DNA of 33,279 nt from a virus (lineage: Duplodnaviria; Heunggongvirae; Uroviricota; Caudoviricetes). A program made the position numbers and the translations under genes. The notes below the pieces were generated by a model, which saw nothing but the letters and a program-made list of their open reading frames with translations, made no database searches and had not been told where the DNA came from. Position 1 is the stretch's first letter; the number at the start of each line of letters is the position of its first letter. Shown here in pieces: positions 5,965 to 31,935 of this stretch. The stretch lies in IMG/VR virus record IMGVR_UViG_2718217713_000004, positions 1 to 33,279 of that record, one strand, 5' to 3'.

Positions 5965-6020
5965 GGTTTTCTCACTTCTGAATCAGGGTTAACCGGTCAG
6001 CCTGGCTGACCGGATGAAAA

Positions 6021-6539
6021 TCACAGGCCGATATTGCGGCGGTGTTGCTCCAGCCGGTCGACGCCGTTCACCTTCTCAATCATGTTGATGGTGTCGATTT
6101 CGACCAGCTCCTTACCGTCCATCGTCAGCCGGAAATAGGTGCAGACCACGGAGATTTTCGACTCGGTGTCTTCTCCCTGTTTACCCTCACCGGTGTCGAT
6201 TTCTTTCTGACGGCCACGCATGACCACTTCGACGGCCACCGTTTCGCCGGTATCGTCGCGCTGGTAAGAGCCTGCAAAACGAATCGGCACGGCATCCACG
6301 CCGGTTGCGGCGTAAAGCTCCCAGATAACCGAATCCGGGAAGCCACCGAGCGACCACTCCATTGACAGCGCATCGTCATCAAGGCCGAGGTCTACCGGTG
6401 CGCTGCCGTTCATCCCCGCACCGCGATAGTTTTCGAGCTTACGGGTCAGTTTTGGCAGCGTGACGGACTTCGCGACGCCCTGATAGCTGTAGCCGTTCAG
6501 AAAGACGTTCATTAACTTGAGTTTGCGCGGCATTGCCAT
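6021..6539 (-). CDS. FII: Tail tube protein gpFII (172 aa)
   Basis: Length, position and sequence match P2 FII. Confidence 0.9.
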   Translation of the reverse strand: MAMPRKLKLMNVFLNGYSYQGVAKSVTLPKLTRKLENYRGAGMNGSAPVDLGLDDDALSMEWSLGGFPDSVIWELYAATGVDAVPIRFAGSYQRDDTGETVAVEVVMRGRQKEIDTGEGKQGEDTESKISVVCTYFRLTMDGKELVEIDTINMIEKVNGVDRLEQHRRNIGL

Positions 6540-6551
6540 CGGTCAGGCTCC

Positions 6552-7742
6552 TTAATTGCTGTTAACCGAGGTGACCAGATTTGCCAGGTATTTATCGGTA
6601 ATACGCTGGCGCAGGGTCAGGTTTTCGAGAGGAGGCACCGGTGTATAGTCGTAGTCGATATACAGTTTTCCGGCCTTGAGGGTTTCCGCATCGTTGGATT
6701 CTTCGCTGAACCAGCATGAGCCATCCACGATATAGCCGTTTGTTTTCAGCTCACGGAATTTGGCATTGATGCCGTCAACGATATCGCGAATCAGCGTTGC
6801 GGTGATGGGCTTGTCCACCGCCCACATGTGCGCCTCAGCCATCGTGTCGGCCAGCACCTGCGCGGTGCGGGTGTAGTTTTCAAAGAGAAACAGTGGGTCA
6901 TCAGAGCAGGTACGGTTACCCCAGAAGCGGAAACCGTCGCGGCGAATCAGCGTAGTGACGCCTGACTCATTAAGCAGGTCAGCATCAGTGCCGGGCTTCT
7001 GCAAATCCCAGAAGACGGATGCACTGATGCCGGTAACACCGTTCACCCCGACGTTGGACAGCGTTTTATGCCAGCCCTGCTCCTGGTCGATTTTAGCGCG
7101 CAGACCCAGCGCACGGGCGGTGGCATACGCGGTGGCGGTGGTACTGGTAACCGTATCCCATGCGAGGAAATCCGGCCAGATGACCATCAGCTCACGCTGG
7201 CTGAAATTCTGGCGGTAGGCTTTCACCTCGGAAATGGTTTTACAACCCCATGCGCTGATATACCCGAAGGCATTCAGTTCCTGGCATACCGATGCCAGTG
7301 CGACGGCGACCTCTTTGGTGTCCAGTCCCGGTACGCCGAGAATACGCGGTTTAACGCCGGTAACCGACTCAGCGCCCATCAGGGCTTTCAGTCCGGTGTA
7401 CTGACCGTTTTCGTCAGTGGTGCCGATGATATTGGAAACGGTCTGCGCGAGTTTCGTTTCTTCGTCGTCGCCTGTTCCGTCTTCCACGCGCACGACAACG
7501 GTGACCGGTTTTGACTGGTCACCGATTGCCTGCAACGATGCCGCCAGCGTGCCTTTTTTACCGGCCTTTGCAATCGCGCTCTGCACATTGGTGATCAGCA
7601 CCGGTTTATTGACGGGGAAGGTTTCCGCATCCGCATCGCTGGCCGTGCAGACCATGCCAACAATGGCGGTGGATACGGTGGAAATGACGCGGGTGCCGTC
7701 GTTAATCTCCAGCACCTGCACGCCGTGATGATAGTCACTCAT
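6552..7742 (-). CDS. FI: Contractile tail sheath protein gpFI (396 aa)
   Basis: Length, position and sequence match P2 FI. Confidence 0.9.
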   Translation of the reverse strand: MSDYHHGVQVLEINDGTRVISTVSTAIVGMVCTASDADAETFPVNKPVLITNVQSAIAKAGKKGTLAASLQAIGDQSKPVTVVVRVEDGTGDDEETKLAQTVSNIIGTTDENGQYTGLKALMGAESVTGVKPRILGVPGLDTKEVAVALASVCQELNAFGYISAWGCKTISEVKAYRQNFSQRELMVIWPDFLAWDTVTSTTATAYATARALGLRAKIDQEQGWHKTLSNVGVNGVTGISASVFWDLQKPGTDADLLNESGVTTLIRRDGFRFWGNRTCSDDPLFLFENYTRTAQVLADTMAEAHMWAVDKPITATLIRDIVDGINAKFRELKTNGYIVDGSCWFSEESNDAETLKAGKLYIDYDYTPVPPLENLTLRQRITDKYLANLVTSVNSN

Positions 7743-7783
7743 CCGTTTAACTCCGTGGTTAATGGGTGAGTGATATTTTCAGT

Positions 7784-7799
7784 TGTGCCGGAGATGTCA
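7784..7799 (-). promoter_or_regulatory. Candidate Ogr-responsive late promoter element upstream of FI (minus-strand TGACATCTCCGGCACA; shares TGWCA-N5-GGCACA with the element upstream of V)
   Basis: Partial dyad about 50 nt upstream of the FI start codon, nearly identical in form and spacing to the one upstream of V. Confidence 0.4.
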
Positions 7800-7801
7800 G
7801 G

Positions 7802-8395
7802 CTATTTGTCCCGGTTGGCTAAGGGATGACACAATTTATTCTTTGTCGCTGATGAGGGGAATTTTTTATAGAGCGTGGACAGGCCAATATCAAAAATCAG
7901 CGCCACACGTTGACGAGATTCCCCCGCAGCCAGCAACCGTCCGACCTGCTCCCACTCACCCGCAGTGAGTTTCGGTCGTCTGCCACCAATACGACCTTTG
8001 GCTCTGGCCGCTTCCAGTCCGGCGCGTGTCCGCTCGACAATGAGTTCTCGCTCCATTTCAGCCAGGGCACCCATCACATGAAAGAAAAAACGCCCCATCG
8101 GCGTGCTGGTATCAATAGCATCCGTCAGGCTGCGAAAATTAACGCCGCGTTCGCGCAGTTCCTCAACCAGAATGACCAGATGCCGCATACTACGCCCCAG
8201 CCTGTCCAGCTTCCAGACCACCAGTGTATCCCCCTCAGATAATGTTCTGAGCAGTTTTTTCAGTCCCGGTCGGTCGGACTTTGTGCCGCTGATTTTATCC
8301 TCAAAAATCAGCTCACATCCTGCACACTCCAGCGCATTACGCTGCAATTCCGTATTCTGGTCATTTGTTGATACGCGGACATAGCCAATAAGCAT
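7802..8395 (-). CDS. Serine recombinase, DNA invertase of the Hin/Gin/Cin/Pin family (197 aa)
   Basis: N-terminus MLIGYVRVSTNDQ with catalytic Ser in RVST, resolvase/invertase core and C-terminal HTH region (GLSTLYKKF); sits adjacent to an invertible tail-fibre segment. Confidence 0.9.
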   Translation of the reverse strand: MLIGYVRVSTNDQNTELQRNALECAGCELIFEDKISGTKSDRPGLKKLLRTLSEGDTLVVWKLDRLGRSMRHLVILVEELRERGVNFRSLTDAIDTSTPMGRFFFHVMGALAEMERELIVERTRAGLEAARAKGRIGGRRPKLTAGEWEQVGRLLAAGESRQRVALIFDIGLSTLYKKFPSSATKNKLCHPLANRDK

Positions 8396-8450
8396 GATGG
8401 ATCCCCTGAATAAAAACCAGAGATGATGCCACTTGCCCGTTATCTCTGCA

Positions 8451-8476
8451 TTTTCATAAACGTTGGTTTGGGAGAA
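8451..8476. repeat. Invertase crossover site, right copy (ttttcataaacg-tt-ggtttgggagaa), hix/gix-like 26-bp site
   Basis: Two 12-bp half-sites around a 2-bp core; half-site pattern TTnTCnnAAACC is my summary of Hin-family sites; inverted copy at 10314..10339 shares 14 identical bp. Confidence 0.7.
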
Positions 8477-8839
8477 GCGGCAAAACTTGGCGCTGCTGTA
8501 GGGGTAACGGGTAATACCGGGAGAATATTGATCCCGGCTTTAATTGGTGGGGTTGAACAAAATATCATTTTCCAGTGGGTCTCTGGATTTCTTTCCGATT
8601 CGACTGGAGTAGCAACCGTGACATTACCTATGGCATTTCCTAACGCTCTGTTTCATGCCACTGCGATTGACTCAGGTGCTTCTGCTAGCTCGTGGAATGG
8701 ATCGGCCGGCACAACGTGGGGCTTCGATATTGGTGGCTCTACCAGAACGACAGTCAAAGTTCGTGTTTTAAGAACAACTAATGGGACTTCATGGGCGGGT
8801 GCTTCAGCTGCCGGTTGTTTATTCGCAATAGGTTATTAA
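8477..8839 (+). CDS. Silent alternative tail-fibre C-terminal domain (Sv'); promoterless and startless, in frame with the fibre constant region after inversion
   Basis: Reading frame ...GLGE-AAKLGAAVGVTGNTG... is continuous through the crossover site and shares the GLGE junction with gene H; the ORF-track N-terminus (MMPLARYLCIF) is not a real start. Confidence 0.7.
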   Translation, partial: AAKLGAAVGVTGNTGRILIPALIGGVEQNIIFQWVSGFLSDSTGVATVTLPMAFPNALFHATAIDSGASASSWNGSAGTTWGFDIGGSTRTTVKVRVLRTTNGTSWAGASAAGCLFAIGY

Positions 8840-8840
8840 C

Positions 8841-9272
8841 ATGAAAACAAGATACTTTTATGACGCCGTTGATAACGGATTTTATATTGAACCTGAAAGC
8901 AGGTTTATTCCTGAATCAGCTATTGAAATCAGTGTTAACCTCTACAACCAATTTGCTGGTATTGCCTGGCCTGAAGGTAAAATGCTTGGTGCAGATAGCA
9001 CTGGACTGCCCGCTTGGGTCGATGCGCCGCCTCCAACGCATGAAGAGCTTATTGAAATTACTCAATCAGAAAGACAGCTACTAATTAACCAGGCCAACGA
9101 ATACATGAACAGTAAACAATGGCCCGGTAAAGCCGCTATTGGTCGTCTGAAAGGTGACGAACTGGCGCAATATAATTTGTGGCTGGATTATCTGGACGCA
9201 CTGGAACTGGTTGATACTTCCGGTGCGCCAGATATTGAATGGCCTACGCCTCCGGCAGTTCAGGCCAGATGA
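8841..9272 (+). CDS. Alternative tail-fibre assembly chaperone (Tfa', 143 aa)
   Basis: Conserved Tfa C-terminus ...LWLDYLDALELVDTSGAPDIEWPTPP; 3' end convergent with and overlapping the minus-strand Tfa. Confidence 0.8.
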   Translation: MKTRYFYDAVDNGFYIEPESRFIPESAIEISVNLYNQFAGIAWPEGKMLGADSTGLPAWVDAPPPTHEELIEITQSERQLLINQANEYMNSKQWPGKAAIGRLKGDELAQYNLWLDYLDALELVDTSGAPDIEWPTPPAVQAR

Positions 9273-9846
9273 CATCCGGCGCGGTGCTGGTATCTGTTGC
9301 CGTCAACGCGTCAATATAATCCAGCGCAGCGTTAAGCCGGGTGGTTTCTGCCTGCGTCAGCTTCCGCCCGGCCTGCAATTTCAACTGAATCAGACTAATG
9401 GAAACCATTGCAGCATCAATCAGTGACTGACGCTGTGCTTCTGCCGCGTCTACTGCGGCGCTATGCTGTGCCTCGGTATCTGTCACCCATTTCTCACCAT
9501 CCCATTTATCGTATGGAGATAAAGGGGCGATAGTGGTTGTATTTTCAGGGTAATCACCCGGAGATGTGATTTCTTTTGATTCTCCTGTTTCGGTGCTATA
9601 GACGATTTCACCGCGATGGTCTGGCACATATTCCCATGAGTTAAAATCTGCAGAACGGCGGATAACATAACCCTCCCTATGTATACCAGGTGCATCCAGG
9701 CAGGAATATGCCGGGATACCAACACCAACGGCAAGATATTCACTTGAAGTGGAAATATATTCCCGAGTTTCACCATCATAGTTATAAACAGTAATATCCC
9801 CTGCCTTCGTAGCAATAAACTCGCTATTTAATACAGCGTTATCCAT
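9244..9846 (-). CDS. G: Tail-fibre assembly chaperone (gpG-like Tfa, 200 aa), currently in the expressed orientation
   Basis: C-terminus ...LNAALDYIDALTATDTSTAPDVIWPELP typical of Tfa/gpU(Mu)/gpG(P2) family; TAATG stop/start overlap with H. Confidence 0.85.
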   Translation of the reverse strand: MDNAVLNSEFIATKAGDITVYNYDGETREYISTSSEYLAVGVGIPAYSCLDAPGIHREGYVIRRSADFNSWEYVPDHRGEIVYSTETGESKEITSPGDYPENTTTIAPLSPYDKWDGEKWVTDTEAQHSAAVDAAEAQRQSLIDAAMVSISLIQLKLQAGRKLTQAETTRLNAALDYIDALTATDTSTAPDVIWPELPEA

Positions 9847-11153
9847 TATGCAGCCCTCACAATGTAGTTAAATGCAACGTTCACCGGGCGAGTTTCATTG
9901 GCGGTATTTGCCACCCTTGACATATCGAAATCAAATGTTGTGACACCATGCCCTCCACTACCTACGCCTGTAACCGCTGTTAATCCAGTAGTCAGATAGT
10001 TATTACCGTTATGACGAAATGGACCACTGGTAACTAAATCTTTAAAAAGCTGAATTTTCCCTATTGAACCAGTGACGTTTTGCATTGCATGCTCCTGTGA
10101 AGCCAATAGAATCCTTCCGGGGTCAATGCCTCTCCCGTCATCCCAGCCACGAATAAACTCACCGCGTAAATCAGGCAATTTATTTGTCGGGTAAGCCTTT
10201 GCCAGTTCCGGGTATTCTTCAGCAGAAAATGCCGCACCGTTGCATTTCAGCCAGCCTGTTGGCGGAGTGGCGGAAGGCCACGGAACAGGCACACCAACGG
10301 GTAATGCCGAACCTTCTCCCAAACCAAGGTATGCGAGAAGACCAGCTACATCCTTTCCACTCAAATGAGTCAGCGTCTCATCCAGTGGCTGCTTACCTGA
10401 CAGCGCATTGTTAATGGTGGTGCTGAATTTCGGGTCATTGTTAATGGCCGCGGCAATTTCTTTCAGTGTGTCCAGCGTGGCTGGCGCACCATTAATCAGA
10501 GCGGTAATAGCAGCCTGAACAAACGCAGTGGTCGCAATCCGCGTGGTGTTATTTCCTGCGGCAGGCGTCGGCGCTTTTGGTTCTCCGGTAAATGTCGGAT
10601 TATGTTTCTGCGCATACTGGGTATGAGGATCCTGTGCGGCAATGTGGTTTCTCATCTGGTCATCCACATACAGCCTTAATTCCAGGACTTCATCATCCAC
10701 GTATTTACGGGTCGCCAGTACCACCGACGGGTCGATTTTCAGCGTGATGGCTTCGGTATTCGTGACAACCAGAATCATGCGGATAGTCTGGGTACGACCA
10801 CTGCCTTCCTGCAACTGCGGTTTGTACGTTTCCGGGCAGTTCGCCACCGCAATGAGTACGCCTTCATCATCATAAAGCCCAATCTCACGGATCCAGAATC
10901 CGCCCTCGTTCTCAGGGATGATTTGCTCCGCAATAATCTGGCTCTGGTTGTTCGGGTCAACACTCAGAAGATTCAGCGGCGCGATGCGTTTCTGGTTAAT
11001 CAGTTTTGTCTGTGCCGGGTCTGGTGTCGGCAAGACACCATTCGCATCACCAACGGCCATTTGCGTCAGATTCAGCTTACTGCCGAGCATCGTCGCGTTA
11101 GCCAGCCGTGCAGCGCCCTGATTAGTCAGAATGGCGTAGTATTTCACTGTCAT
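9846..11153 (-). CDS. H: Tail-fibre protein gpH (435 aa): constant N-terminal part (about 10340..11153) fused to the currently expressed variable C-terminus (9846..10313)
   Basis: Fibre-like sequence with collar-type motif PVGVPVPWP...WLKCNGA; crossover site lies inside the gene at the LLAYLGLGE junction. Confidence 0.85.
   Translation of the reverse strand: MTVKYYAILTNQGAARLANATMLGSKLNLTQMAVGDANGVLPTPDPAQTKLINQKRIAPLNLLSVDPNNQSQIIAEQIIPENEGGFWIREIGLYDDEGVLIAVANCPETYKPQLQEGSGRTQTIRMILVVTNTEAITLKIDPSVVLATRKYVDDEVLELRLYVDDQMRNHIAAQDPHTQYAQKHNPTFTGEPKAPTPAAGNNTTRIATTAFVQAAITALINGAPATLDTLKEIAAAINNDPKFSTTINNALSGKQPLDETLTHLSGKDVAGLLAYLGLGEGSALPVGVPVPWPSATPPTGWLKCNGAAFSAEEYPELAKAYPTNKLPDLRGEFIRGWDDGRGIDPGRILLASQEHAMQNVTGSIGKIQLFKDLVTSGPFRHNGNNYLTTGLTAVTGVGSGGHGVTTFDFDMSRVANTANETRPVNVAFNYIVRAA
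10314..10339. repeat. Invertase crossover site, left copy (ttctcccaaacc-aa-ggtatgcgagaa), inverted relative to 8451..8476
   Basis: Fourteen bp (ttctcccaaaccaa) identical to the reverse complement of the right site; located inside H at the constant/variable boundary. Confidence 0.7.
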
Positions 11154-23324: not shown

Positions 23325-25283
23325 ATGTCAGATTTCGAAATTAAAATTGATTTGAATGTGCTAAATCACCTAGGGATGAGTCTCTATTCCAATACTCCCG
23401 CGGTACTAACTGAGATTATATCAAATGCATGGGATGCAGATGCTCAAAATGTAGAAATTACACTTGATGTTGAGAAAGGAGAGGTCATCATTAAAGATGA
23501 TGGTCATGGCATGTCTAAAGATGACATTATTAATAAGTTCCTAAAAGTCGGTTATGCTCGCAGGGAACATGGAAGAGCCAAAAGCGATCATCTAAAACGT
23601 CAAGTTATGGGCAGAAAAGGTATTGGTAAGCTTGCCATGTTTTCACTTGCCAATAAAATCCAAGTTTATTCGTACAAAAAGGGGGAACAGCCTCAGGCCT
23701 TTGAGGTAGATGTCAAAGATTTACAGCAAAGTATCAAAGAATCAAAAAACTATATTGCTGACTCCCTTGAAATACCCGAAAATCTTGCTTACGGCACTAC
23801 AATTAAATTATTTGAACTAAAAAAAGCCATTGATAGGACTCAAACTTACCTCAGAAAGCGAATAGCTCGTCGATTTAGCATTATTGGCCCCAACCATAAC
23901 TTTACAGTTAAAATTAATGGGACCGATATTACACCGGCAGATAGAGATTTCCTTTCAGATCTCGAGTTCATTTGGGAATTTGGCGAATCCGACCCTGAAA
24001 GGATAAAATCCTGCACAAACATCACACAAAAAAACATATTACCAAATACTATTACCTTTGAAGGAAAAGATGTAAAAGTTAGTGGGTACATTGGCAGTGT
24101 AGTTAAGCCATCACAGTTAAAGAAAGACCCTGAAATATCTAACAACAGCATTACTGTAATCTCTCACGGACGTGTTTTTGAGGAGGACATATTATTAGAA
24201 TTTGGAAGTGCTAAAGTATTCACCAATTATCTGGTCGGTGAAATAGTCGCCGATTTTCTAGATGATAACGAAAAGCCTGATATGGCAACATCTTCTCGTC
24301 AAAAACTACAACAGAATGATCCAAGATACCCTGTACTTAAAGGTTTTCTGGAAAGAACGCTACAACTAATCGATAAAGATTGGGATAAATGGAGACGCGA
24401 AAAAGGAGTAAATGAAGTTAAAAGTAATACTCCAATAGTAAGTGAATGGCTGAATTCTCTCAAAAAACATGAGAGAGAAAGTGCCGAAAAGTTAATTGGA
24501 CGAGTAAACACATTCCGTTTTTCTGGTAATGAGGAAGAACAAAAAGCAGCAAGAAAAACCGTATTAAAAAATACGGTATTAGCCTTTGAAAGACTTAGAA
24601 TTCAAGACAACCTTGATGCATTAGATAAAATAAGCAACCTTCAATCAGAAAATTTTAAAGATGTATTTGCATCTGTCAATGACATTGAAGCAAGCATGTT
24701 TTATGAAATTACTTCGCAACGCCTTAAAGTAATTGAAAAATTCCAAAAAATAACTGATGAAAATCAGCTTGAAAGAGCTGTACAAATGTATTTATATGAT
24801 CATTTATGGTTATTGGATCCTTCATGGGAAAGAGTCACAGGCACATCTGTTATGGAGCAAACATTGACCAAGGAACTAAAACAGATAAACCCTGATGCTG
24901 CTAGCGGTGCTCGTATTGATATCGCTTTCAAAACCGTTTCTGGCAAGCATGTAATTATTGAGATGAAACGACCTAAAGTGCACCCAGATATAATGAACCT
25001 AGTCGCACAAGGTAATAAATATGTACAGGCAACGACACAATGGTTCTCCAATAACCCTAAAAATTGCCCAGGTGGAAATATACCGCATATAGAAGTAATA
25101 TTCCTGGTTGGCTCTGGATATTTACAAGAGAACCAACACTTTATAAATATGCAATTACTTTCTATCAATGGAAAAATATTGACATATAATGACCTAATCG
25201 TGCAATCAAAACAAGCCTATGCTGAATATCAAGACAAAAAGAATGATGCAGCTAGAATTATGAAAATAGTTGAGGGAATCTAA
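23325..25283 (+). CDS. Hypothetical GHKL-family ATPase (HATPase_c / Bergerat fold, MutL-MORC-like N-terminal domain) with a C-terminal PD-(D/E)xK-like nuclease motif, 652 aa; candidate restriction or defence effector
   Basis: N box EIISNAWDA, G1 box IIKDDGHGM, G2 box GRKGIGKLAMF near the N-terminus; C-terminal ARIDIAF...HVIIEMKRPK fits D...(D/E)xK; Shine-Dalgarno aagga upstream of ATG; AT-rich codon usage unlike the phage backbone. Confidence 0.6.
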   Translation: MSDFEIKIDLNVLNHLGMSLYSNTPAVLTEIISNAWDADAQNVEITLDVEKGEVIIKDDGHGMSKDDIINKFLKVGYARREHGRAKSDHLKRQVMGRKGIGKLAMFSLANKIQVYSYKKGEQPQAFEVDVKDLQQSIKESKNYIADSLEIPENLAYGTTIKLFELKKAIDRTQTYLRKRIARRFSIIGPNHNFTVKINGTDITPADRDFLSDLEFIWEFGESDPERIKSCTNITQKNILPNTITFEGKDVKVSGYIGSVVKPSQLKKDPEISNNSITVISHGRVFEEDILLEFGSAKVFTNYLVGEIVADFLDDNEKPDMATSSRQKLQQNDPRYPVLKGFLERTLQLIDKDWDKWRREKGVNEVKSNTPIVSEWLNSLKKHERESAEKLIGRVNTFRFSGNEEEQKAARKTVLKNTVLAFERLRIQDNLDALDKISNLQSENFKDVFASVNDIEASMFYEITSQRLKVIEKFQKITDENQLERAVQMYLYDHLWLLDPSWERVTGTSVMEQTLTKELKQINPDAASGARIDIAFKTVSGKHVIIEMKRPKVHPDIMNLVAQGNKYVQATTQWFSNNPKNCPGGNIPHIEVIFLVGSGYLQENQHFINMQLLSINGKILTYNDLIVQSKQAYAEYQDKKNDAARIMKIVEGI

Positions 25284-25288
25284 TTATA

Positions 25289-25312
25289 CCCCCCTGTTTT
25301 TTGACAGGGGGG
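25289..25312. terminator. Hairpin between the convergent GHKL and methyltransferase genes (stem cccccctgt/acagggggg, U-rich loop); terminator-like, bidirectional
   Basis: Perfect 9-bp GC stem read from the sequence; no clean post-stem T-tract, so terminator function is tentative. Confidence 0.45.
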
Positions 25313-25324
25313 ATGACATAAGTT

Positions 25325-26374
25325 TTAAATATTCATTTCTGACAAATGTTTTAAAATAGTTTCACCTACGACCTCACCAAGCCTAACAGGAACAGCATTA
25401 CCTATTAAACGCGCAACTGTTCTCATTTCAATTTTTACATCATCAGGCCAAAACTCATACTTTTCTGGGAATGACTGTAATAGCGCAGCCTCTCTTAAAC
25501 TTAATGCTCTATTTTGGACAGGGTGCCCAAAGCGTCCATTCCCATATCCAATACATTGAGTTGTAATTGTCGGTCCAAGTTTATCCCAACACATTCTCCC
25601 ATATACAGCAGTATATGTAGAACCACTTTCTTTTGTATGACATTTTGCTCTTAGCTCTTCTGGCCAATCACGCCATGTTCCACCAGGTTTTGATGCCATT
25701 ATTCTTTTTATATTAATATCAGATAATGATGCAGAGCGATGTAGTTTATCTCCAGCGTGAACAGCACCGGCACTAATTTCAGGAAGATTACCGATTATAT
25801 CTCGCACCGTTTTATAATCATTCTTCTCATGAGTTGGTGGAATTATTTCTATTTCTCCATATTTTGATGCCAATAACACTAATCTTGAACGACTTTGTGC
25901 CATTCCATAGTCTGGACAAAACACCACCCCATACCAAACAAAATAGCCATCATTTTTAAGAGACTTAATGAAGTCCTTAAAAACCTTATGATTCACCACT
26001 CGGGGAACGTTTTCCATTGTAATAATATCTGGCTTTGCAAATTTAATTTGCTTAGCAAAGCTATAAAGCAAAGACCATCTTTTATCTTTTGAACGTACTA
26101 CCCCTAATTTAGCACTATTGGTATAGCTTGAAAAAGGTTGGCATGGGGCACAACCAGCCAAAACTCGAACCTTCGCTCCTTCGAAATATTTAACTAATTC
26201 GCCGTCCTCAATGTCTGTAACACTTTTCTGGACAAAGAGTGATTTATTATTTGTCTCATAGGCAAATCGACAGGCTGCATCTATATCATAACCTGCAACT
26301 ACATTAAGCCCCGACTTCTGAAGACCGTGAGTCAAGCCACCCGCGCCACAGAATAAATCAACAACCTTAATCAA
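25325..26374 (-). CDS. DNA (cytosine-5)-methyltransferase, Dcm-type
   Basis: Motif I DLFCGAGG, motif IV PCQPFS, motif VI ENV, C-terminal GNAVP in canonical order; start assigned to TTG at 26374..26372, preceded by AAGGAGG with 6-nt spacing (ORF track begins further upstream at 26476, also TTG). Confidence 0.85.
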   Translation of the reverse strand: MIKVVDLFCGAGGLTHGLQKSGLNVVAGYDIDAACRFAYETNNKSLFVQKSVTDIEDGELVKYFEGAKVRVLAGCAPCQPFSSYTNSAKLGVVRSKDKRWSLLYSFAKQIKFAKPDIITMENVPRVVNHKVFKDFIKSLKNDGYFVWYGVVFCPDYGMAQSRSRLVLLASKYGEIEIIPPTHEKNDYKTVRDIIGNLPEISAGAVHAGDKLHRSASLSDINIKRIMASKPGGTWRDWPEELRAKCHTKESGSTYTAVYGRMCWDKLGPTITTQCIGYGNGRFGHPVQNRALSLREAALLQSFPEKYEFWPDDVKIEMRTVARLIGNAVPVRLGEVVGETILKHLSEMNI

Positions 26375-26440
26375 GATAAACCTCCTTCTAATGCTGTGGG
26401 GATTGTAGCATTGTTCTTTCTCATCATCGATGTTTACTTG

Positions 26441-26471
26441 ATGCTTGATTTGTGAATACAAAATCAAGCAT
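26441..26471. promoter_or_regulatory. 31-bp palindrome ATGCTTGATTT-N9-AAATCAAGCAT overlapping a promoter-like TTGACA upstream of the methyltransferase; candidate operator
   Basis: Perfect 11-bp inverted arms read from the sequence; AT-rich with no T-tract (not terminator-like); on the minus strand TTGACA overlaps the first arm. Confidence 0.45.
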
Positions 26472-26485
26472 GTCAATCATTATTG

Positions 26486-28765
26486 TTAGTTTGTTTCAAA
26501 TCCCGCCCAACCATCAGAAATCGGATATGAAAACGTTTTCCCATCATAATTTACGGTCGCGCCACGCGCCAGCGCCTCAAGCTCCCATCGCTGCGGCCTG
26601 ATACCGTTCTGAGCAAGGTCAACGCGGATACGGGTAATTTGCATTCGTTCCGACCGGGCCAGTCTGGCCGATGGTGCAATTTCATGTGGTTTTAACGAGC
26701 TTCCGTTTCTTTGCTGACGATTTGGCGTTCTCCGACCGTGTTTTAATGCACCTCTGAGCGCCCTCACGACCTCCGGGTCACTCCATTCGATAACACTGTC
26801 ATCAACCAGATTAAGCACTGCTGCGGCGTGCTCAGAAGGTGTGGGAGCCGGTAACGAAGTATCACCACCGGTGAGTTTTCCACAGTTATTGACAGGACTC
26901 CGAGGCGCGGCGATGCCGCTTTTTAAAGTCAAAGGCTCAACGACCGGCACTTTCGGCACAATGCGCCAGTCCGTCGTTCTGGTGATATGAATATGACGCG
27001 CGCCGAGATGCGGCGCGTAAATGCCGACCACTCTCTCGACTTCTTCCTCGTACTCGTTAACGTCATCCGACGGGCTACGGGCAACCCTGACAGTCTGACA
27101 ATCGCGCGGAACATTTGCCCCACCCTGCGCGCTGATATACAACGCAAAATCACCACTGTCTGCGGCAGCGCGTGCAGCCTCGACGCGTTCGTCAAACTCA
27201 TCAGCAATGCTGACGCCGCGAGGCAATTTGCGTAGTTCACGGTAAGCCCCCATTGTCGGCAGGCCAACCGTTTTAAATTGCGGAATGCGCCACGTTGACG
27301 CCCATGCGGTAACAGCCGCGGCAGTGTCTTTCAGCGGCCTGCCGGTATCGTTATCGAGCTGACCATCCAGTGCATAGCCATCGATGTTTTTTGAAATGTA
27401 TTTCGCGATATACCCCGCAGCACCGCCCCGGTTAAGGTGTTTTGCCTGAAAACGGTTTCGCGCAGCTCCTCTTTCGTCGCCATCCTCTTTGAGCGCGTAG
27501 CGACGCATGATTTCAATAATCTGGTTACGCTGGCGTGGATTACAAAAAAGCATCATATGCCAGTGCGGCGTTCCGTCGTGGTGTGGCTCGACGACTCGCA
27601 AACCGTAGACCTGTAAATCATTATCCTTGAATGCCGTGCGCATCAGGCTCCAGATACGGCAGAGATAACGCTGCGCATCCTTTGGATTAAATGCCTCATC
27701 GTTCCAGCCGTGATTTAGCTGGACGGTTTTACTTTCTCCTTTTCCGACCTGACGTGTCGGGTGATACTTTGACGGCGCGGTCAGCGTGATAAACATCCCC
27801 ACATCACCCTCTGCTGCGGCGTAACGCTCAATACCGGCGATGGTGTTCATCAGCTCCATCCGGCGAATTTCTGGATTAGAAATACTGCCCATCACCTTAC
27901 TGATAAGGTCGATGCGCTCGCCGGTTTCCTTGTTTTCAAGGTCACACGATTTAAGAAACTCCAGATTTGCCTGGCGGCGCGCACGCACATCACGAATGGC
28001 ATGTTTACTGGCATAAGGAGAACGGTCTTTATTGACCTCCCCGACAGCAATCAGTAACGCCTCATGCCAGCGCATACGCTGGCCTTTAAGCTGATGAGTC
28101 CACCACTCATCGTTAAACAGACGGGCAATGGCAGAATATGCCTGCCTCGTGGTTATCTGTCCTTTACGGTATTTTTTCCAGTAGAGCGGGGAAATATTGA
28201 AAGCACGTGCAGCGCCAGCAACATGACCATACAGGTGAGTCTGCGCCTCATCCGTAAACAGCGATTCTTTTTCGCCATGTGCATCAACCCATGCATCGCA
28301 GAGTTCCTCATACATCATGAAAAGCTGCGATGAGATACGGGCGGCAAACTTTTTCAGCTCCTTGTCATTCATTCCAGGCAGGCGCGCATAGTGGTCACGC
28401 TCTGCCAGAAACAGCAACGACGCGTCGGTGTTCATTTCATGGCGCTGATTCACGCGCTCAATGCGCGGCCATAAACGACGCTGAAAAGTAGATGTGAGGA
28501 AATAAAACCCGTGCACCGGGCTTTTATTGCGCCGGATGTAGTCATAGCGTGAAGTAAACAGCGAGCGCAAAAAGTAAGGCAGGCGGTTAATCGTGGATAA
28601 AACACCTTGCACCTGACGCATCTCGTCACGTGTAAGGGGTCTTTCGCGCCCGACGGCCTCGCGTGGCGCGTTCCATGCATAAGCACCGGTAAACGCCTTA
28701 CCGGTGCCTGCAGCAAATGCTGACGGAGGTACGCAGGTGTATTGCTCCTGGAAAGAATGACTCAT
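26486..28765 (-). CDS. A: Replication initiation protein gpA (rolling-circle nicking endonuclease, 759 aa)
   Basis: Length and sequence match P2 gpA; start overlaps the stop of the upstream gene (ATGA). Confidence 0.9.
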   Translation of the reverse strand: MSHSFQEQYTCVPPSAFAAGTGKAFTGAYAWNAPREAVGRERPLTRDEMRQVQGVLSTINRLPYFLRSLFTSRYDYIRRNKSPVHGFYFLTSTFQRRLWPRIERVNQRHEMNTDASLLFLAERDHYARLPGMNDKELKKFAARISSQLFMMYEELCDAWVDAHGEKESLFTDEAQTHLYGHVAGAARAFNISPLYWKKYRKGQITTRQAYSAIARLFNDEWWTHQLKGQRMRWHEALLIAVGEVNKDRSPYASKHAIRDVRARRQANLEFLKSCDLENKETGERIDLISKVMGSISNPEIRRMELMNTIAGIERYAAAEGDVGMFITLTAPSKYHPTRQVGKGESKTVQLNHGWNDEAFNPKDAQRYLCRIWSLMRTAFKDNDLQVYGLRVVEPHHDGTPHWHMMLFCNPRQRNQIIEIMRRYALKEDGDERGAARNRFQAKHLNRGGAAGYIAKYISKNIDGYALDGQLDNDTGRPLKDTAAAVTAWASTWRIPQFKTVGLPTMGAYRELRKLPRGVSIADEFDERVEAARAAADSGDFALYISAQGGANVPRDCQTVRVARSPSDDVNEYEEEVERVVGIYAPHLGARHIHITRTTDWRIVPKVPVVEPLTLKSGIAAPRSPVNNCGKLTGGDTSLPAPTPSEHAAAVLNLVDDSVIEWSDPEVVRALRGALKHGRRTPNRQQRNGSSLKPHEIAPSARLARSERMQITRIRVDLAQNGIRPQRWELEALARGATVNYDGKTFSYPISDGWAGFETN

Positions 28766-29769
28766 TCACATACACCGGCATAGACACTACTGCAAACTGA
28801 CTTATCATTCACCGAAGCCAGCAAATCAAACTGTGCCCCGCCACGCGTGGTCATCGCCCAGTCACGATAAGACTCAATTCCGTAAGCATCGACAGTAATA
28901 ATATCAATGCGGCGTTCCGCACGACGCGGGTCATGAGTTGACGGGAAGAAAGTAGAATTTCCGCGTCTGGAGCATGCGGCGACAAGTCGCTCCCATTCCG
29001 CAACACGCTTAACCTCTTCCGGCCAGCGACTAAAAATTTCAGCTAATTCAGACTTTCTGGCGTGGATGCAGGGCATACAACCGACACGACTGCATCCCTG
29101 CTGGTATAACGGATTAGGTTTAATTCCATGACGTCTTGCAAATGCAAATACCTCCTCATGCGTCCAGTTCAGAATAGGACGGTATACATGGAGCCCGGGC
29201 GTATTGTCCGCATCCTCTTCCCAGGCAGGCAGACCCGCGCGCGCAGGAGACTCCTGAGCGCGAACCCCCTGCCAGCTAATTACCTCATCAAACTCATTAA
29301 GCGCAGGTAACACGACCTGAGTACGTACTGGCTCATGTTTAAGGTCAAAAGTGCAAAATCTGGCTTTAGTGGAAGGAAATCGCCCTTTCCACATGCACAA
29401 ATCAAGAAATGGGATACCAGTAGGCTTGAGAATTTCCAGCGCACAATTGATGCGCTCTGCCGCTTCCCCCGGAGACATTCCGCACTCTTCAACCAGAGAA
29501 ACAGGCCATTTCTCAGCAATAAACTTGCGCTTACCTTCAATCTGTCGGGAGAAGTCAGCTTTAACCCGTTTAACCGGCCCGAGTCGGTTCTCCAGATAAT
29601 CGAGATACTCCATTGTCTGCGGATGCTCATGCCCGGTGTCTGCAAAAACCGGCAAAAAATGCACACCGCTTTCAATACCAACAAGCCATTGAGCAAGGCT
29701 ATCCTTTCCGCCAGAAACAGAAATAATATTGATAGAGCTTTCAGCTCGGCAGCGGGTATCAACTATCAT
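28762..29769 (-). CDS. PP-loop ATP pyrophosphatase, PAPS-reductase-like family protein (335 aa); accessory gene absent from the P2 reference early operon
   Basis: PP-loop ISVSGGKDS near the N-terminus and Cys cluster CSRVGCMPC near the C-terminus; ATGA overlaps with orf83 (29766..29769) and A (28762..28765). Confidence 0.7.
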   Translation of the reverse strand: MIVDTRCRAESSINIISVSGGKDSLAQWLVGIESGVHFLPVFADTGHEHPQTMEYLDYLENRLGPVKRVKADFSRQIEGKRKFIAEKWPVSLVEECGMSPGEAAERINCALEILKPTGIPFLDLCMWKGRFPSTKARFCTFDLKHEPVRTQVVLPALNEFDEVISWQGVRAQESPARAGLPAWEEDADNTPGLHVYRPILNWTHEEVFAFARRHGIKPNPLYQQGCSRVGCMPCIHARKSELAEIFSRWPEEVKRVAEWERLVAACSRRGNSTFFPSTHDPRRAERRIDIITVDAYGIESYRDWAMTTRGGAQFDLLASVNDKSVCSSVYAGVCE

Positions 29770-30047
29770 TTAGATTTCCCCGCACAGAGAAACGCAGTCA
29801 GACACTGCTGACCGAGCTGCTCAACCTGAGAGCTCAGCGCCTCAAAAGAGACAGCGTTACCGCTCAAAATATCGTGATGGATCAGACCGGAAACGAGCTG
29901 GTTTAATTTGGGGTAATAGCCGACAACATCCAGCCACTCTTTACCGGCATTCTTCCCGGTTTCAGCGGTCTTTCTCTCCTGCAAAATGAACTGAAAACGG
30001 TCATTTGTGACGACATAACGCTCGCCAATCTCAATACGAATGCTCAT
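29766..30047 (-). CDS. P2 orf83-like early protein (93 aa)
   Basis: Position and sequence as P2 orf83. Confidence 0.75.
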   Translation of the reverse strand: MSIRIEIGERYVVTNDRFQFILQERKTAETGKNAGKEWLDVVGYYPKLNQLVSGLIHHDILSGNAVSFEALSSQVEQLGQQCLTAFLCAGKSK

Positions 30048-30268
30048 GCCATTCTCCGGTAATGCTTGTTTTTTGCTTCAAAGACTGACTGGCAGGAAAC
30101 ACAACGCGTGGCTGACGGATAAGCCGCACGACGGGCAGCAGGTATTGGCGCGTCACACTCTTCGCAAACCAGCGCAGAAACACCGCAATGTTTTACCCTT
30201 GCCGCGTTAATCTGGCGCTCCAGTAATTCAGCCTGTTGTTCCTGAATAAAATCCTCGTTGTCCGGCAT
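30044..30268 (-). CDS. P2 orf82-like TraR/DksA-family C4 zinc-finger protein (74 aa)
   Basis: Four Cys in CEEC...CVSC arrangement; position as P2 orf82. Confidence 0.75.
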   Translation of the reverse strand: MPDNEDFIQEQQAELLERQINAARVKHCGVSALVCEECDAPIPAARRAAYPSATRCVSCQSVFEAKNKHYRRMA

Positions 30269-30573
30269 TACCAGCTCCTTTTGTCGTTCAGTTTCTTAAA
30301 TTCATCAGCGCAATAGCTGGCGATTTCTGTCGTTAATTTTGTCAGTTCATCCACGGAGGAAATTTGCTTGTGAAATACAGCGCGTTTAACAAGTAAATTG
30401 ACCACATCAGACAGGAGATTTAATTCGTTCTGATAAATCGCGATAACAGATTCAGTTATGTCGCGTTTTTCTTTATCAAGACAAAGTTGAATAAGAGACA
30501 AATCGCCATTTTTCATAACGGCGATTTTTAAGGCGTTATTCAGTAACACAACTGAATGAGAACAGGACATCAA
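30268..30573 (-). CDS. P2 orf81-like early protein (101 aa)
   Basis: Position and sequence as P2 orf81. Confidence 0.7.
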
Positions 30574-31905: not shown

Positions 31906-31935
31906 AATATAGTCATTAAGTCAGGACTATGTCAA
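31906..31935 (-). promoter_or_regulatory. Early (lytic) promoter Pe: minus-strand -35 TTGACA (31930..31935), 18-bp spacer, -10 TATATT (31906..31911); the -35 abuts the C start codon
   Basis: Strong sigma-70 consensus read directly from the sequence; TGACT direct repeats in the spacer are candidate C operator half-sites. Confidence 0.6.

Follow-up and report, generated by a model that had tools for sequence, protein, structure and literature searches.

The gene and its place in the early operon

The DNA analyzed here (33,279 nucleotides, referred to below as the window) is a P2-type prophage whose nonstructural cargo consists of an m5C methyltransferase, a GHKL restriction-enzyme-like protein, and an invertase. 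On its minus strand, at positions 28762 to 29769, lies a gene for a 335-aa PAPS-reductase-like PP-loop protein, the ortholog of orf84 of coliphage 186, recognized from the ORF list, Pfam and PHROG matches, and identity to the 186 protein. The initial annotation had reported a 335-aa gene here, and the ORF is indeed present, with a Pfam PAPS_reduct match at an E value of 1.4e-35; this match and a low dN/dS ratio indicate that it is a real gene. The ratio is 0.044 against 186 orf84 and 0.08 against L024, and the gene is under strong purifying selection (dN/dS of about 0.04 to 0.08). Its GC content (0.50) resembles that of the phage (0.52), whereas that of the restriction-modification cargo in the window is 0.36 to 0.38. 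Composition therefore gives no mark of recent cargo.

Upstream, at 29766 to 30047 on the minus strand, is an orf83-like gene (DUF5405; Pfam PF17399), whose product shares 65 of 93 residues with Wphi gp83 and 47 of 93 with 186 Orf83. Downstream, at 26486 to 28765 on the same strand, is the gene for the replication initiator A, a rolling-circle nickase (Pfam Phage_GPA; E value of 4e-124). The ATGA overlaps initially described on both sides are found as tcat on the plus strand, one joining the orf83-like stop to the PAPS-like gene start (29766 to 29769, minus strand) and the other joining the PAPS-like gene stop to the A start (28762 to 28765, minus strand). Their reading as tight coupling to A still stands, but 4-nt overlaps are also found at orf80/81 and orf82/83, in addition to orf83/PAPS-like gene and PAPS-like gene/A, so that they represent an operon-wide style and no special mark of this gene.

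A strong sigma-70-like promoter (TTGACA-18-TATATT; 11 of 12 matches) is located upstream of cox at 31906 to 31935 on the minus strand and outranks any other promoter-like site on the coding strand between 26000 and 32300. The sole other promoter-like site (31275 to 31248) is inside B, far upstream of the PAPS-like gene, and the scan of this strand and region found no strong site just upstream of the gene itself. The site upstream of cox is thus likely, judging from these scans, to drive the whole operon, including the PAPS-like gene, as an early promoter. An Rfam scan of the window returned no RNA family.

The protein is 82.3% identical over residues 2 to 335 to 186 Orf84 (CP84; GenBank U32222/AAC34185). 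The gene order Orf83-Orf84-A, the 4-nt overlaps, the PP-loop, and five cysteines at conserved positions are common to both phages. At the nucleotide level, only the gene is shared with 186 (74.8% identity; 29771 to 28762), whereas the flanks in the window are of the P2/Wphi type (94 to 98%). The P2-type phage Wphi matches the window at 94 to 98% from 31400 to 29814 and from 28732 to 26900, with no match between. Besides the entire PAPS-like gene, the cassette absent from Wphi (28733 to 29813, minus strand) takes in the final ~16 codons of the orf83-like gene and the initial ~11 of A, and its boundaries are clean. In Wphi, which lacks the PAPS-like gene, gp83 overlaps gpA, and among 75 P2-like phage records, the gene is present in 4 while the flanks alone match in 71. 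The earlier statement that orf83 is directly followed by A in P2 is consistent with these results. It overlooked the long-known order Orf83-Orf84-A of 186 (82% identity), and the arrangement is not new. As this order is known and 186 Orf84 is annotated as "not essential" (GenBank U32222), the gene can count neither as a new insertion nor as part of the phage core; its presence in 4 of 75 P2-like records speaks against the conserved core gene that the initial annotation had named as an alternative. Taken together, these comparisons show that it is the counterpart of coliphage 186 orf84 in the P2 lineage (Peduovirus) and an accessory gene, probably nonessential as in 186. Among 5426 complete Escherichia coli genomes, 14 carry the gene at an identity of at least 99% and 53 at 73 to 79% (nucleotides), about 67 in total.

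Apart from the words "not essential," the annotation of 186 Orf84 deals solely with coupling: translation of A in 186 appears to need translation to the end of orf84 (GenBank U32222). Just ahead of the A start, moreover, there is no more than a weak Shine-Dalgarno-like sequence. The coding sequence might thus serve mainly to adjust how much of the cis-acting A protein is made, with the enzyme being dispensable baggage. We consider this highly improbable. P2-type phages couple A from orf83 without a PAPS-like gene, and homologs in phages without gpA retain the motifs. Moreover, the strong purifying selection noted above and the near invariance of the catalytic residues over hundreds of clusters show that selection acts on the PAPS-like protein itself. 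The early lytic operon ends with a slot for variable cargo, which the gene occupies immediately ahead of A; to A, it is translationally coupled in 186 and, as the overlap suggests, in the window.

Family membership, conserved motifs, and fold

The initial assignment to the PAPS-reductase superfamily of PP-loop proteins is borne out by a score of 123.3 bits to Pfam PF01507 (PAPS_reduct), for which the cutoff is 22.5 (residues 15 to 236). Matches to PHROG 424 (E value of 2e-84) and PHROG 15238 (E value of 5.9e-88) place the protein in the group of 186 Orf84. Scores for CysH models are far below their cutoffs (PRK02090, 66.8 versus 154; TIGR00434, 45.6 versus 165.1; TIGR02057, 41.7 versus 254.2), as are those for assimilatory APS reductases of the Fe-S type (TIGR02055, 55.2 versus 235.3; TIGR00424, 14.9 versus 553.2) and for DndC (TIGR03183, 22.6 versus 290.4), with PADLOC DndC models giving 16 to 27 bits. 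The best PADLOC matches are SspD (E value of 8.6e-22; 76 bits), BrxP (1.1e-15; 55 bits), and DndC (6.5e-7; 27 bits). The SspD match is partial, consisting of two stretches, the better of which covers profile positions 72 to 202 of 277, and the window contains no Ssp partners. BrxP of type 4 BREX is a protein of about 780 aa with a DUF4007 fusion and with PglZ and BrxC as BREX neighbors; the 335-aa protein matches positions 212 to 336 of the 779-position model only and has no BREX genes nearby. Of the HMM classes first proposed, PAPS_reduct is thus above its cutoff, while DndC is below and SspD is partial. On the basis of these profiles, the orf84 clade is neither CysH, APS reductase, nor DndC, and the protein likely represents a distinct clade in the PAPS-reductase branch of PP-loop enzymes.

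The PP-loop noted earlier is present as S19-G-G-K-D-S24 (29698 to 29715, minus strand; reverse complement TCTGGCGGAAAGGATAGC), an ATP pyrophosphatase signature. Its SGGxDS motif is intact, as in active-type ATP pyrophosphatases. The family comprises 351 clusters (50% identity, E value of ≤1e-30), and in 131 family sequences with 35 to 55% identity, every position of the loop is kept in 116 to 125 members. Cys139, in the motif RFCTxxLK (29353 to 29355, minus strand), is kept in 131/131. Cys231-Met-Pro-Cys234 (29068 to 29079, minus strand), in RVGCMPC, is likewise retained (C231 in 131/131 and C234 in 128/131). These three cysteines are predicted Fe-S ligands. Cys334 (28768 to 28770, minus strand) is kept in 126 members and is a predicted mobile catalytic or persulfide-carrying residue. 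It lies in a C-terminal tail that ends in YAGVCE, the family consensus being YGLCE, and the preceding C326 is kept in 103 of the 131. The PP-loop, Cys139, Cys231-x-x-Cys234, and Cys334 are thus features of the orf84 family as a whole. The "C-terminal cysteine cluster" of the initial annotation, CSRVGCMPC, exists at residues 226 to 234 but sits in the core domain. Of its cysteines, only C231 and C234 are conserved, Met being usual at position 226. The other conserved cysteines are C139 and, at the actual C terminus, C334.

The CxxC of RVGCMPC aligns with SIGCEPCT of 2goy and SIGCAPCT of 7lhr, the [4Fe-4S] ligands of APS reductase. The motif of Cys139 falls at what we take to be the Cys-Cys...RKxEPL segment of APS reductase; the HMM alignment begins a few residues downstream, at IEPL, and the orf84-type protein has a single Cys (F138-C139) at the presumed Cys-Cys site. 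Other APS-reductase elements, DTG, the Arg-rich GVRxxES..R, and the C-terminal Cys, also have counterparts. Among solved folds, those of APS and PAPS reductases come closest to an AlphaFold2 model of the protein (pLDDT of 93.4, with lower values of 63 to 82 in the C-terminal tail). The labels obtained in a BFVD fold search were all generic, namely, "PAPS reductase" and QueC. One PDB match, "PptA" (21fy_C; E value of 3e-5), was taken as spurious, with no stretch significant alone, and a literature search for it found nothing.

The correspondence of each motif, the similarity in fold, the classification of PHROG 424 as "auxiliary metabolic gene," and the reductase implied by the database name would all be consistent with a working PAPS/APS reductase that raises the supply of sulfite and cysteine during infection. 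We nevertheless regard a role in sulfur assimilation as improbable. In addition to the profile scores, the protein has a canonical, ATP-type SGGKDS loop, whereas that of APS reductases (Pseudomonas aeruginosa 2GOY and Mycobacterium tuberculosis 7LHR) and CysH (1SUR and 6VPU) is degenerate, with SSFGIQA aligned in solved CysH chains and SGAED also found among these reductases. The tail carries GLCE rather than ECGLH, the defining C-terminal catalytic motif of CysH. About 160 residues are additional, and only about 175 of 334 superpose on APS/PAPS reductases; the helical insert and the C-terminal region of ~100 aa are family specific. Furthermore, the neighbors are DNA and nucleotide enzymes, and sulfur-metabolism genes never occurred among them in the related phage loci surveyed.

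Gene neighborhoods and related systems

In all 33 related loci with gpA, the gene is no more than two ORFs upstream of A. A DNA methyltransferase-like ORF (D12 Dam, C5, or another ORF with [DNS]PP[YFW], some being confirmed N6_N4 methylases) is found within 1.5 kb of the gene in 36 of 80 related phage loci, often abutting it. In P2/186-like loci, the immediate neighbor is in many cases Dam, and phiE125 has overlapping genes in the order methyltransferase, PAPS-like, ParB-like. ParB-like genes also adjoin other relatives, such as that of Riah. Dam was rejected as an obligate partner, as Dam is followed by A without a PAPS-like gene in 60 of 73 informative loci of a Dam-centered sample; 186 and the window have the PAPS-like gene without Dam. 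The adjacency may mean no more than that a single early slot takes up both as cargo. Dnd-type genes (dndD/dndE and dndA/iscS) were found neither in the annotated twin P37 nor in scans of the window, and DndD/E or SspB/C partners are absent from the window and from 186. The search for partner genes suggested at the outset thus yielded nearby methyltransferases but neither an obligate Dam nor Dnd, Ssp, or BREX partners. Domain fusions were rejected as Rosetta-stone evidence: longer relatives display PAPS_reduct alone, except for P0256, which has a weak N-terminal Methyltransf_23 match below the cutoff.

In some phages, the neighbors include DUF4406 (nucleoside deoxyribosyltransferase-like), dUTPase_2, and HD-like proteins. 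As PP-loop enzymes such as GMP synthase, QueC, TilS, and NAD synthetase perform many adenylation-substitution reactions, such neighbors could point to a hypermodification of DNA or nucleotides that does not involve sulfur, in which a base carbonyl or nucleotide is adenylated and an amine or other nucleophile is substituted, as in amidotransferase-, QueC-, or TilS-type reactions, with the cysteines being structural or regulatory. This appears rather unlikely, since the four near-invariant cysteines match the cluster and tail-Cys layout of APS reductase and therefore indicate sulfur or redox chemistry, and the related loci show no conserved partner beside the gene, such as a glutaminase, that would donate nitrogen.

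DndC, SspD, and BrxP use adenylation and sulfur chemistry to modify the DNA backbone, and TtuA and TtcA use it on tRNA. With the former, its best PADLOC matches, the orf84-type protein has in common the Pfam superfamily, the canonical SGGKDS, a DNA-modification theme in the genome, and, going by the literature, a Cys-rich core of the Fe-S type. It differs in being phage encoded, expressed early, and stand-alone, with no DndA/D/E, SspA/B/C, or BREX partners, and in a helical insert of its own and the GLCE at the end of its C-terminal tail. The [4Fe-4S] tRNA thiolases TtuA, NcsA, and TtcA belong to another PP-loop subfamily. A TtcA/TtuA-like enzyme acting on RNA might tune translation or shield tRNAs from anticodon nucleases early in infection, but we judge this unlikely: the protein is closer to the PAPS-reductase/DndC/SspD branch, its scores are below the cutoffs for ATP_bind_3 (15.3 bits versus 27) and TilS (15 versus 93.6), no recognized RNA-binding domain (THUMP or PUA) was matched in a Pfam scan, and the genome context consists mainly of DNA methyltransferases, ParB-like proteins, and replication genes.

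IbrA/IbrB, a PAPS-reductase/DUF3440 protein and its ParB-like partner, are described as coactivators of prophage eib genes, and the IbrA type is defined by the C-terminal DUF3440 domain and an adjacent ParB-like IbrB. Judged from the description of IbrA, the two systems resemble each other in having a PAPS-reductase-like protein in a prophage and, in some relatives of our gene, ParB-like neighbors. The orf84-type protein, however, has no DUF3440 match at an E value of ≤0.1, and the window has no ParB-like gene.

To our knowledge, experiments have hinted at what phage PAPS-like genes do in one case only, that of p0018 of Vibrio phage P5a_red. This PAPS-domain/Dam fusion was linked to escape from host Dnd through an engineered swap of two genes (Piel et al.; bioRxiv 10.1101/2021.05.05.442762), and because two genes were exchanged, the result does not separate out what the PAPS domain contributes. 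p0018 resembles the orf84-type genes as a phage-encoded PAPS-reductase domain in association with a DNA methyltransferase; it differs in being an apparently distant, 479-aa fusion with a short PAPS domain (aa 4 to 175). PAPS reductases also occur in Aca-regulated operons for which an antidefense role has been proposed (PMC13551039). JSS1_004, a published anti-Dnd protein, is a kinase and unrelated.

Proposed function and significance

Early expression beside replication genes and the presence of orphan methyltransferase, ParB-like, and nucleotide-metabolism neighbors in many unrelated phages make nucleic acid the likeliest substrate, and counterdefense is most likely the benefit. We consider it close to an even chance that orf84-type genes encode an early Fe-S ATP pyrophosphatase that transfers sulfur, probably in counterdefense. 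The canonical PP-loop would bind ATP and adenylate an oxygen of the substrate, releasing pyrophosphate. A [4Fe-4S] cluster would be held by Cys139, Cys231, and Cys234, and the mobile Cys334 would deliver sulfur, displacing AMP, with the host cysteine desulfurase IscS as the ultimate source. The enzyme could thereby protect phage DNA by marking it with sulfur or subvert host restriction that is based on phosphorothioate. From sequence and context, we infer Fe-S binding, ATP pyrophosphatase activity, sulfur transfer, a DNA target, and counterdefense alike. The role in DNA modification or counterdefense put forward initially is in line with circumstantial evidence (the early operon, the methyltransferase, ParB-like, and nucleotide-metabolism neighbors, and the anti-Dnd precedent), although Dam is not obligate.

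A bolder possibility is that this single phage gene, without partners of the DndD/E or SspB/C type, marks phage DNA with sulfur, as a phosphorothioate or a thio-base, perhaps on nicked or single-stranded DNA made by the cotranslated nickase A. We find this doubtful. The phosphorothioate writers that we know of need DndD/E or SspB/C, and a stand-alone writer would therefore be unprecedented. If true, it would be the first stand-alone virus-encoded DNA-thiolation enzyme and would define a new "orphan" class of antirestriction modification beside orphan methyltransferases.

The locus itself is an ordinary example of a known, uncharacterized gene. PAPS-reductase-like genes are among the most common "metabolic" annotations of temperate phages, and the 351 clusters of the orf84 family alone are routinely mislabeled as sulfur-assimilation genes. 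The clade combines an ATP-type PP-loop with APS-reductase-like cysteines and travels as early-operon cargo beside orphan DNA methyltransferases. Coliphage 186 and P2-type phages appear able to dispense with the gene, which makes them ideally suited to genetic work. If the protein acts in counterdefense or thiolates DNA, many phage genes would need to be reannotated, and a new single-gene tool for modification would follow.

The orf84-type gene upstream of replication gene A

The window is an integrated P2-like prophage with one junction inside it, as a host cation-efflux gene of the zinc-transporter type (1-921; Cation_efflux and ZT_dimer) lies at its left end and is followed by ogr (1140-1421). 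On the minus strand, an ORF of 335 codons encoding a PAPS reductase-like protein (28762..29769) is flanked upstream by an orf83-like gene (29766..30047, minus strand; DUF5405) and downstream by replication gene A (26486..28765, minus strand; Pfam Phage_GPA, E value of 4e-124). Because the plus strand reads tcat at 29766-29769 and 28762-28765, both junctions are ATGA on the coding strand; the stop of the orf83-like gene shares the former four bases with the start of the PAPS-like gene, whose own stop shares the latter with the start of A. The overlaps noted on both sides in the initial annotation are thus present, as is the PP-loop SGGKDS (residues 19-24); the sequence CSRVGCMPC occupies residues 226-234. 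This ORF is a genuine gene, as indicated by its match to Pfam PAPS_reduct (123 bits, E value of 1.4e-35), by dN/dS values of 0.044 against the 186 homologue and 0.08 against a second prophage copy, and by an AlphaFold2 model built with 57 relatives (mean pLDDT of 93.4). Four-base overlaps run through the operon (orf80/81, orf82/83, orf83/PAPS-like, and PAPS-like/A), the top promoter-like site on the coding strand is found upstream of cox (31906-31935), and a scan of the same strand found none near the PAPS-like gene. This suggests that the gene is most likely transcribed within the early lytic transcript.

A tblastn search with the protein identified Orf84 of coliphage 186 over its full length (82% identity), and the 186 gene order, Orf83-Orf84-A, puts it at the same position. 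We consider it nearly certain that the window gene is phage 186 orf84 in a P2-type backbone. The 186 GenBank record describes Orf84 as "unknown function; not essential" and adds that [quoted passage not shown] The coupled insertion between orf83 and A is therefore real but not new, the arrangement and the inferred coupling having already been described for 186. That the gene is a mere translational coupler seems very improbable to us; its PP-loop and cysteine motifs are intact and under purifying selection. The gene is an accessory one of the early operon, coupled to A and nonessential in 186.

In Wphi, a P2-type phage without the gene, gp83 directly overlaps gpA, in agreement with the claim that orf83 runs straight into A in P2 itself. 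Wphi aligns to the window with 94 to 98% identity up to 29814 and resumes at 28732, while 186 matches 29771-28762 alone (74.8% nucleotide identity). By these pairwise alignments the gene lies in a clean cassette that, relative to Wphi, takes the place of the final ~16 codons of orf83 and the initial ~11 of A. Among 75 P2-like phage records, 4 harbor the gene and the remaining 71 match its flanks only; Yersinia phage P37 is 99.9% identical to the window over the region compared (28400-30300). The window allele occurs in 14 of 5426 complete Escherichia coli genomes and divergent alleles (73 to 79% nucleotide identity, approximately the distance of the 186 gene) occur in 53 others, with all copies chromosomal. 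The gene is thus accessory and not a conserved core gene of the lineage. The family itself, 186 orf84 or PHROG 424, is already known, and RefSeq annotates it as "phosphoadenosine phosphosulfate reductase family protein."

Family placement and conserved residues

When 1.84 billion cluster representatives were searched exhaustively, 3056 clusters were retrieved at E values of ≤1e-3 and 351 at ≤1e-30; most of the 150 matches listed extend to the last residue of the protein. Matches to PHROG 424 and 15238 were strong. The curated NCBIfam models all scored far below their cut-offs: CysH (PRK02090, 66.8 versus 154), APS reductase (TIGR02055, 55.2 versus 235.3), TIGR00434 (45.6 versus 165.1), PAPS reductase (TIGR02057, 41.7 versus 254.2), and DndC (TIGR03183, 22.6 versus 290.4). 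The closest defense proteins in PADLOC were SspD (76 bits, partial), BrxP (55), and DndC (27). Of the classes weighed in the initial annotation, the PAPS_reduct superfamily is retained, but neither DndC nor SspD describes the protein. It represents a distinct clade of the superfamily, outside CysH, APS reductase, DndC, SspD, BrxP, and IbrA. We regard a genuine sulfur assimilation enzyme as improbable.

We aligned the window protein with 4 phage homologs and 126 representatives, mostly 35 to 55% identical to it (n = 131). The PP-loop positions are kept in 116 to 125 sequences, Cys139 (RFCTxxLK) and Cys231 in all 131, Cys234 in 128, Cys334 (in the C-terminal YGLCE) in 126, and Cys326 in 103. The proposed cysteine cluster thus holds for Cys231 and Cys234, but the position of Cys226 is usually Met in relatives. 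In a PDB profile search, RVGCMPC aligned with SIGCEPCT of the Pseudomonas aeruginosa APS reductase and SIGCAPCT of the Mycobacterium tuberculosis enzyme, whose cysteines are [4Fe-4S] ligands. The FC...K..P motif of the family presumably corresponds to the Cys-Cys...RKxEPL segment of these two enzymes. The loop of the phage family is the canonical one of ATP-pyrophosphatases, unlike those of CysH and APS reductase, where SSFGIQA and SGAED are aligned. The family thus combines an ATP-adenylating PP-loop, an APS reductase/DndC-like cysteine set, which could hold a cluster on three cysteines, and a conserved cysteine on a flexible C-terminal tail.

A variable cargo slot upstream of A

A gpA homolog is present in 33 of 80 related viral loci, where the PAPS-like gene is always ≤2 ORFs upstream of A. 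In 36 of the 80, a DNA methyltransferase-like ORF lies ≤1.5 kb away, often abutting; this count includes D12 Dam, C5-cytosine methylases, and other ORFs with a [DNS]PP[YFW] motif, part of which were confirmed as N6_N4 methylases (one a ParB_N-methylase fusion). In Burkholderia phage phiE125, an N6_N4 methylase gene, the PAPS-like gene, and a ParB-like gene follow one another with overlaps; in Serratia phage Parlo, dam is two genes downstream. In Pseudomonas phage Riah, a ParB-like gene lies upstream and a DUF4406 gene (nucleoside deoxyribosyltransferase-like; 5991-6527 of its locus) abuts downstream. Other recurrent neighbors are Rv2179c-like/RNase_T exonucleases, a dUTPase_2 protein (abutting at 6882-7640 in locus L052), and SAD/SRA-like proteins whose C-terminal motif is HNH-like.

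In two unrelated viral contigs (L054 and L062), a protein of 397 to 455 aa is encoded directly downstream; its SAD/SRA-like region scores 26.2 bits in Pfam, under the cut-off of 30.7, its HNH-like motif was seen by eye, and it resembles modification-dependent (type IV) nucleases. In locus L056, a C5-methylase ORF of 739 aa (6818-9037) begins within the PAPS-like match (6001-6936), at its 3' end, and ORF calling over 6001-9037 gave no intact PAPS-like ORF; a fusion, a frameshift, or an assembly error may account for this. One relative of 560 aa (P0256) has an N-terminal extension of ~225 residues with a weak match to the SAM-methyltransferase model Methyltransf_23, below the cut-off (E value of 2.7e-4), and may be a methyltransferase/PAPS-like fusion belonging to the family itself.

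Among 73 informative loci recovered with a prophage Dam as the query, 60 lack the PAPS-like gene and have A after Dam, and the other 13 contain both; 186 and the window have the PAPS-like gene without Dam. Dam as an obligate partner is therefore ruled out. The position immediately before A is thus an early-expressed slot for variable cargo, with neither gene, one of them, or both.

Within the early operon of P2/186-like prophages (L011-L051 and L087-L165), it acts as a third site of variable cargo: empty in P2 and Wphi, and otherwise with the PAPS-like gene, Dam, or both, sometimes accompanied by Rv2179c-like or RNase_T exonucleases or a C5 methylase. Separate from this slot is 23325-26476, in the tin/old-type hotspot downstream of A, which looks like a restriction-modification pair: an m5C DNA methyltransferase gene (25325-26476, minus strand) starting 9 nt past the end of A, and a plus-strand gene for a 652-aa GHKL-ATPase protein (23325-25283) matching PADLOC type II restriction enzyme models, both with a GC content of 0.36 to 0.38 (window, 0.52). 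The window also contains an invertible tail-fiber module (7802-11153), comprising a serine invertase (7802-8395; Resolvase and HTH_7), an alternative fiber C-terminal segment (8423-8839; Gp53-like_C), oppositely oriented assembly genes (8841-9272, plus; 9244-9846, minus), and fiber gene H (9846-11153), with short inverted repeats only (e.g., 9182-9199/9308-9325).

Possible role of the PAPS-like protein

The protein is probably an active Fe-S ATP-pyrophosphatase. It would bind ATP and adenylate an oxygen of its substrate, which would then be exchanged for sulfur supplied by host IscS, with a [4Fe-4S] cluster carried by Cys139, Cys231, and Cys234 and with the aid of Cys334. This is the replacement carried out by DndC/SspD/BrxP on the DNA backbone and by TtuA/TtcA on tRNA. 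Timing and neighbors point to a nucleic acid substrate, most likely DNA, and a counterdefense role; a tRNA thiolase or modifier is unlikely, as is a non-sulfur hypermodification enzyme. The enzyme may mark phage DNA as "self," like the orphan methyltransferases beside it, or alternatively interfere with phosphorothioate-dependent restriction. To our knowledge, every phosphorothioate writer requires DNA recognition and ATPase partners; their absence here is the main weakness of this proposal, and a stand-alone viral DNA-thiolating enzyme is doubtful.

No function has been assigned to 186 orf84 or P2-type copies in the literature searched. DndC, SspD, and BrxP are PAPS reductase-like parts of three phosphorothioation systems (PMC12707154; PMC12839542). 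Piel et al. showed that a Vibrio podovirus could infect a Dnd-carrying host once two genes had been swapped in, one of which encodes a fusion of a PAPS domain and Dam (bioRxiv 10.1101/2021.05.05.442762). PAPS reductases were found within Aca-regulated operons in a 2026 study that proposed an antidefense role (PMC13551039), and a Thermus phage paper states that such proteins "deserve further investigation" (PMC11437467).

Our overall reading, held tentatively, is an Fe-S ATP-pyrophosphatase that transfers sulfur to nucleic acid in counterdefense; a DNA-directed role in counterdefense, taken by itself, is a possibility we hold with somewhat less confidence. To the known family, this analysis adds the cassette boundaries, the exclusion from the six named enzyme families, the conservation of the PP-loop together with three cluster-type cysteines and the tail cysteine, and a cargo slot upstream of A that is common to the PAPS-like gene and Dam.
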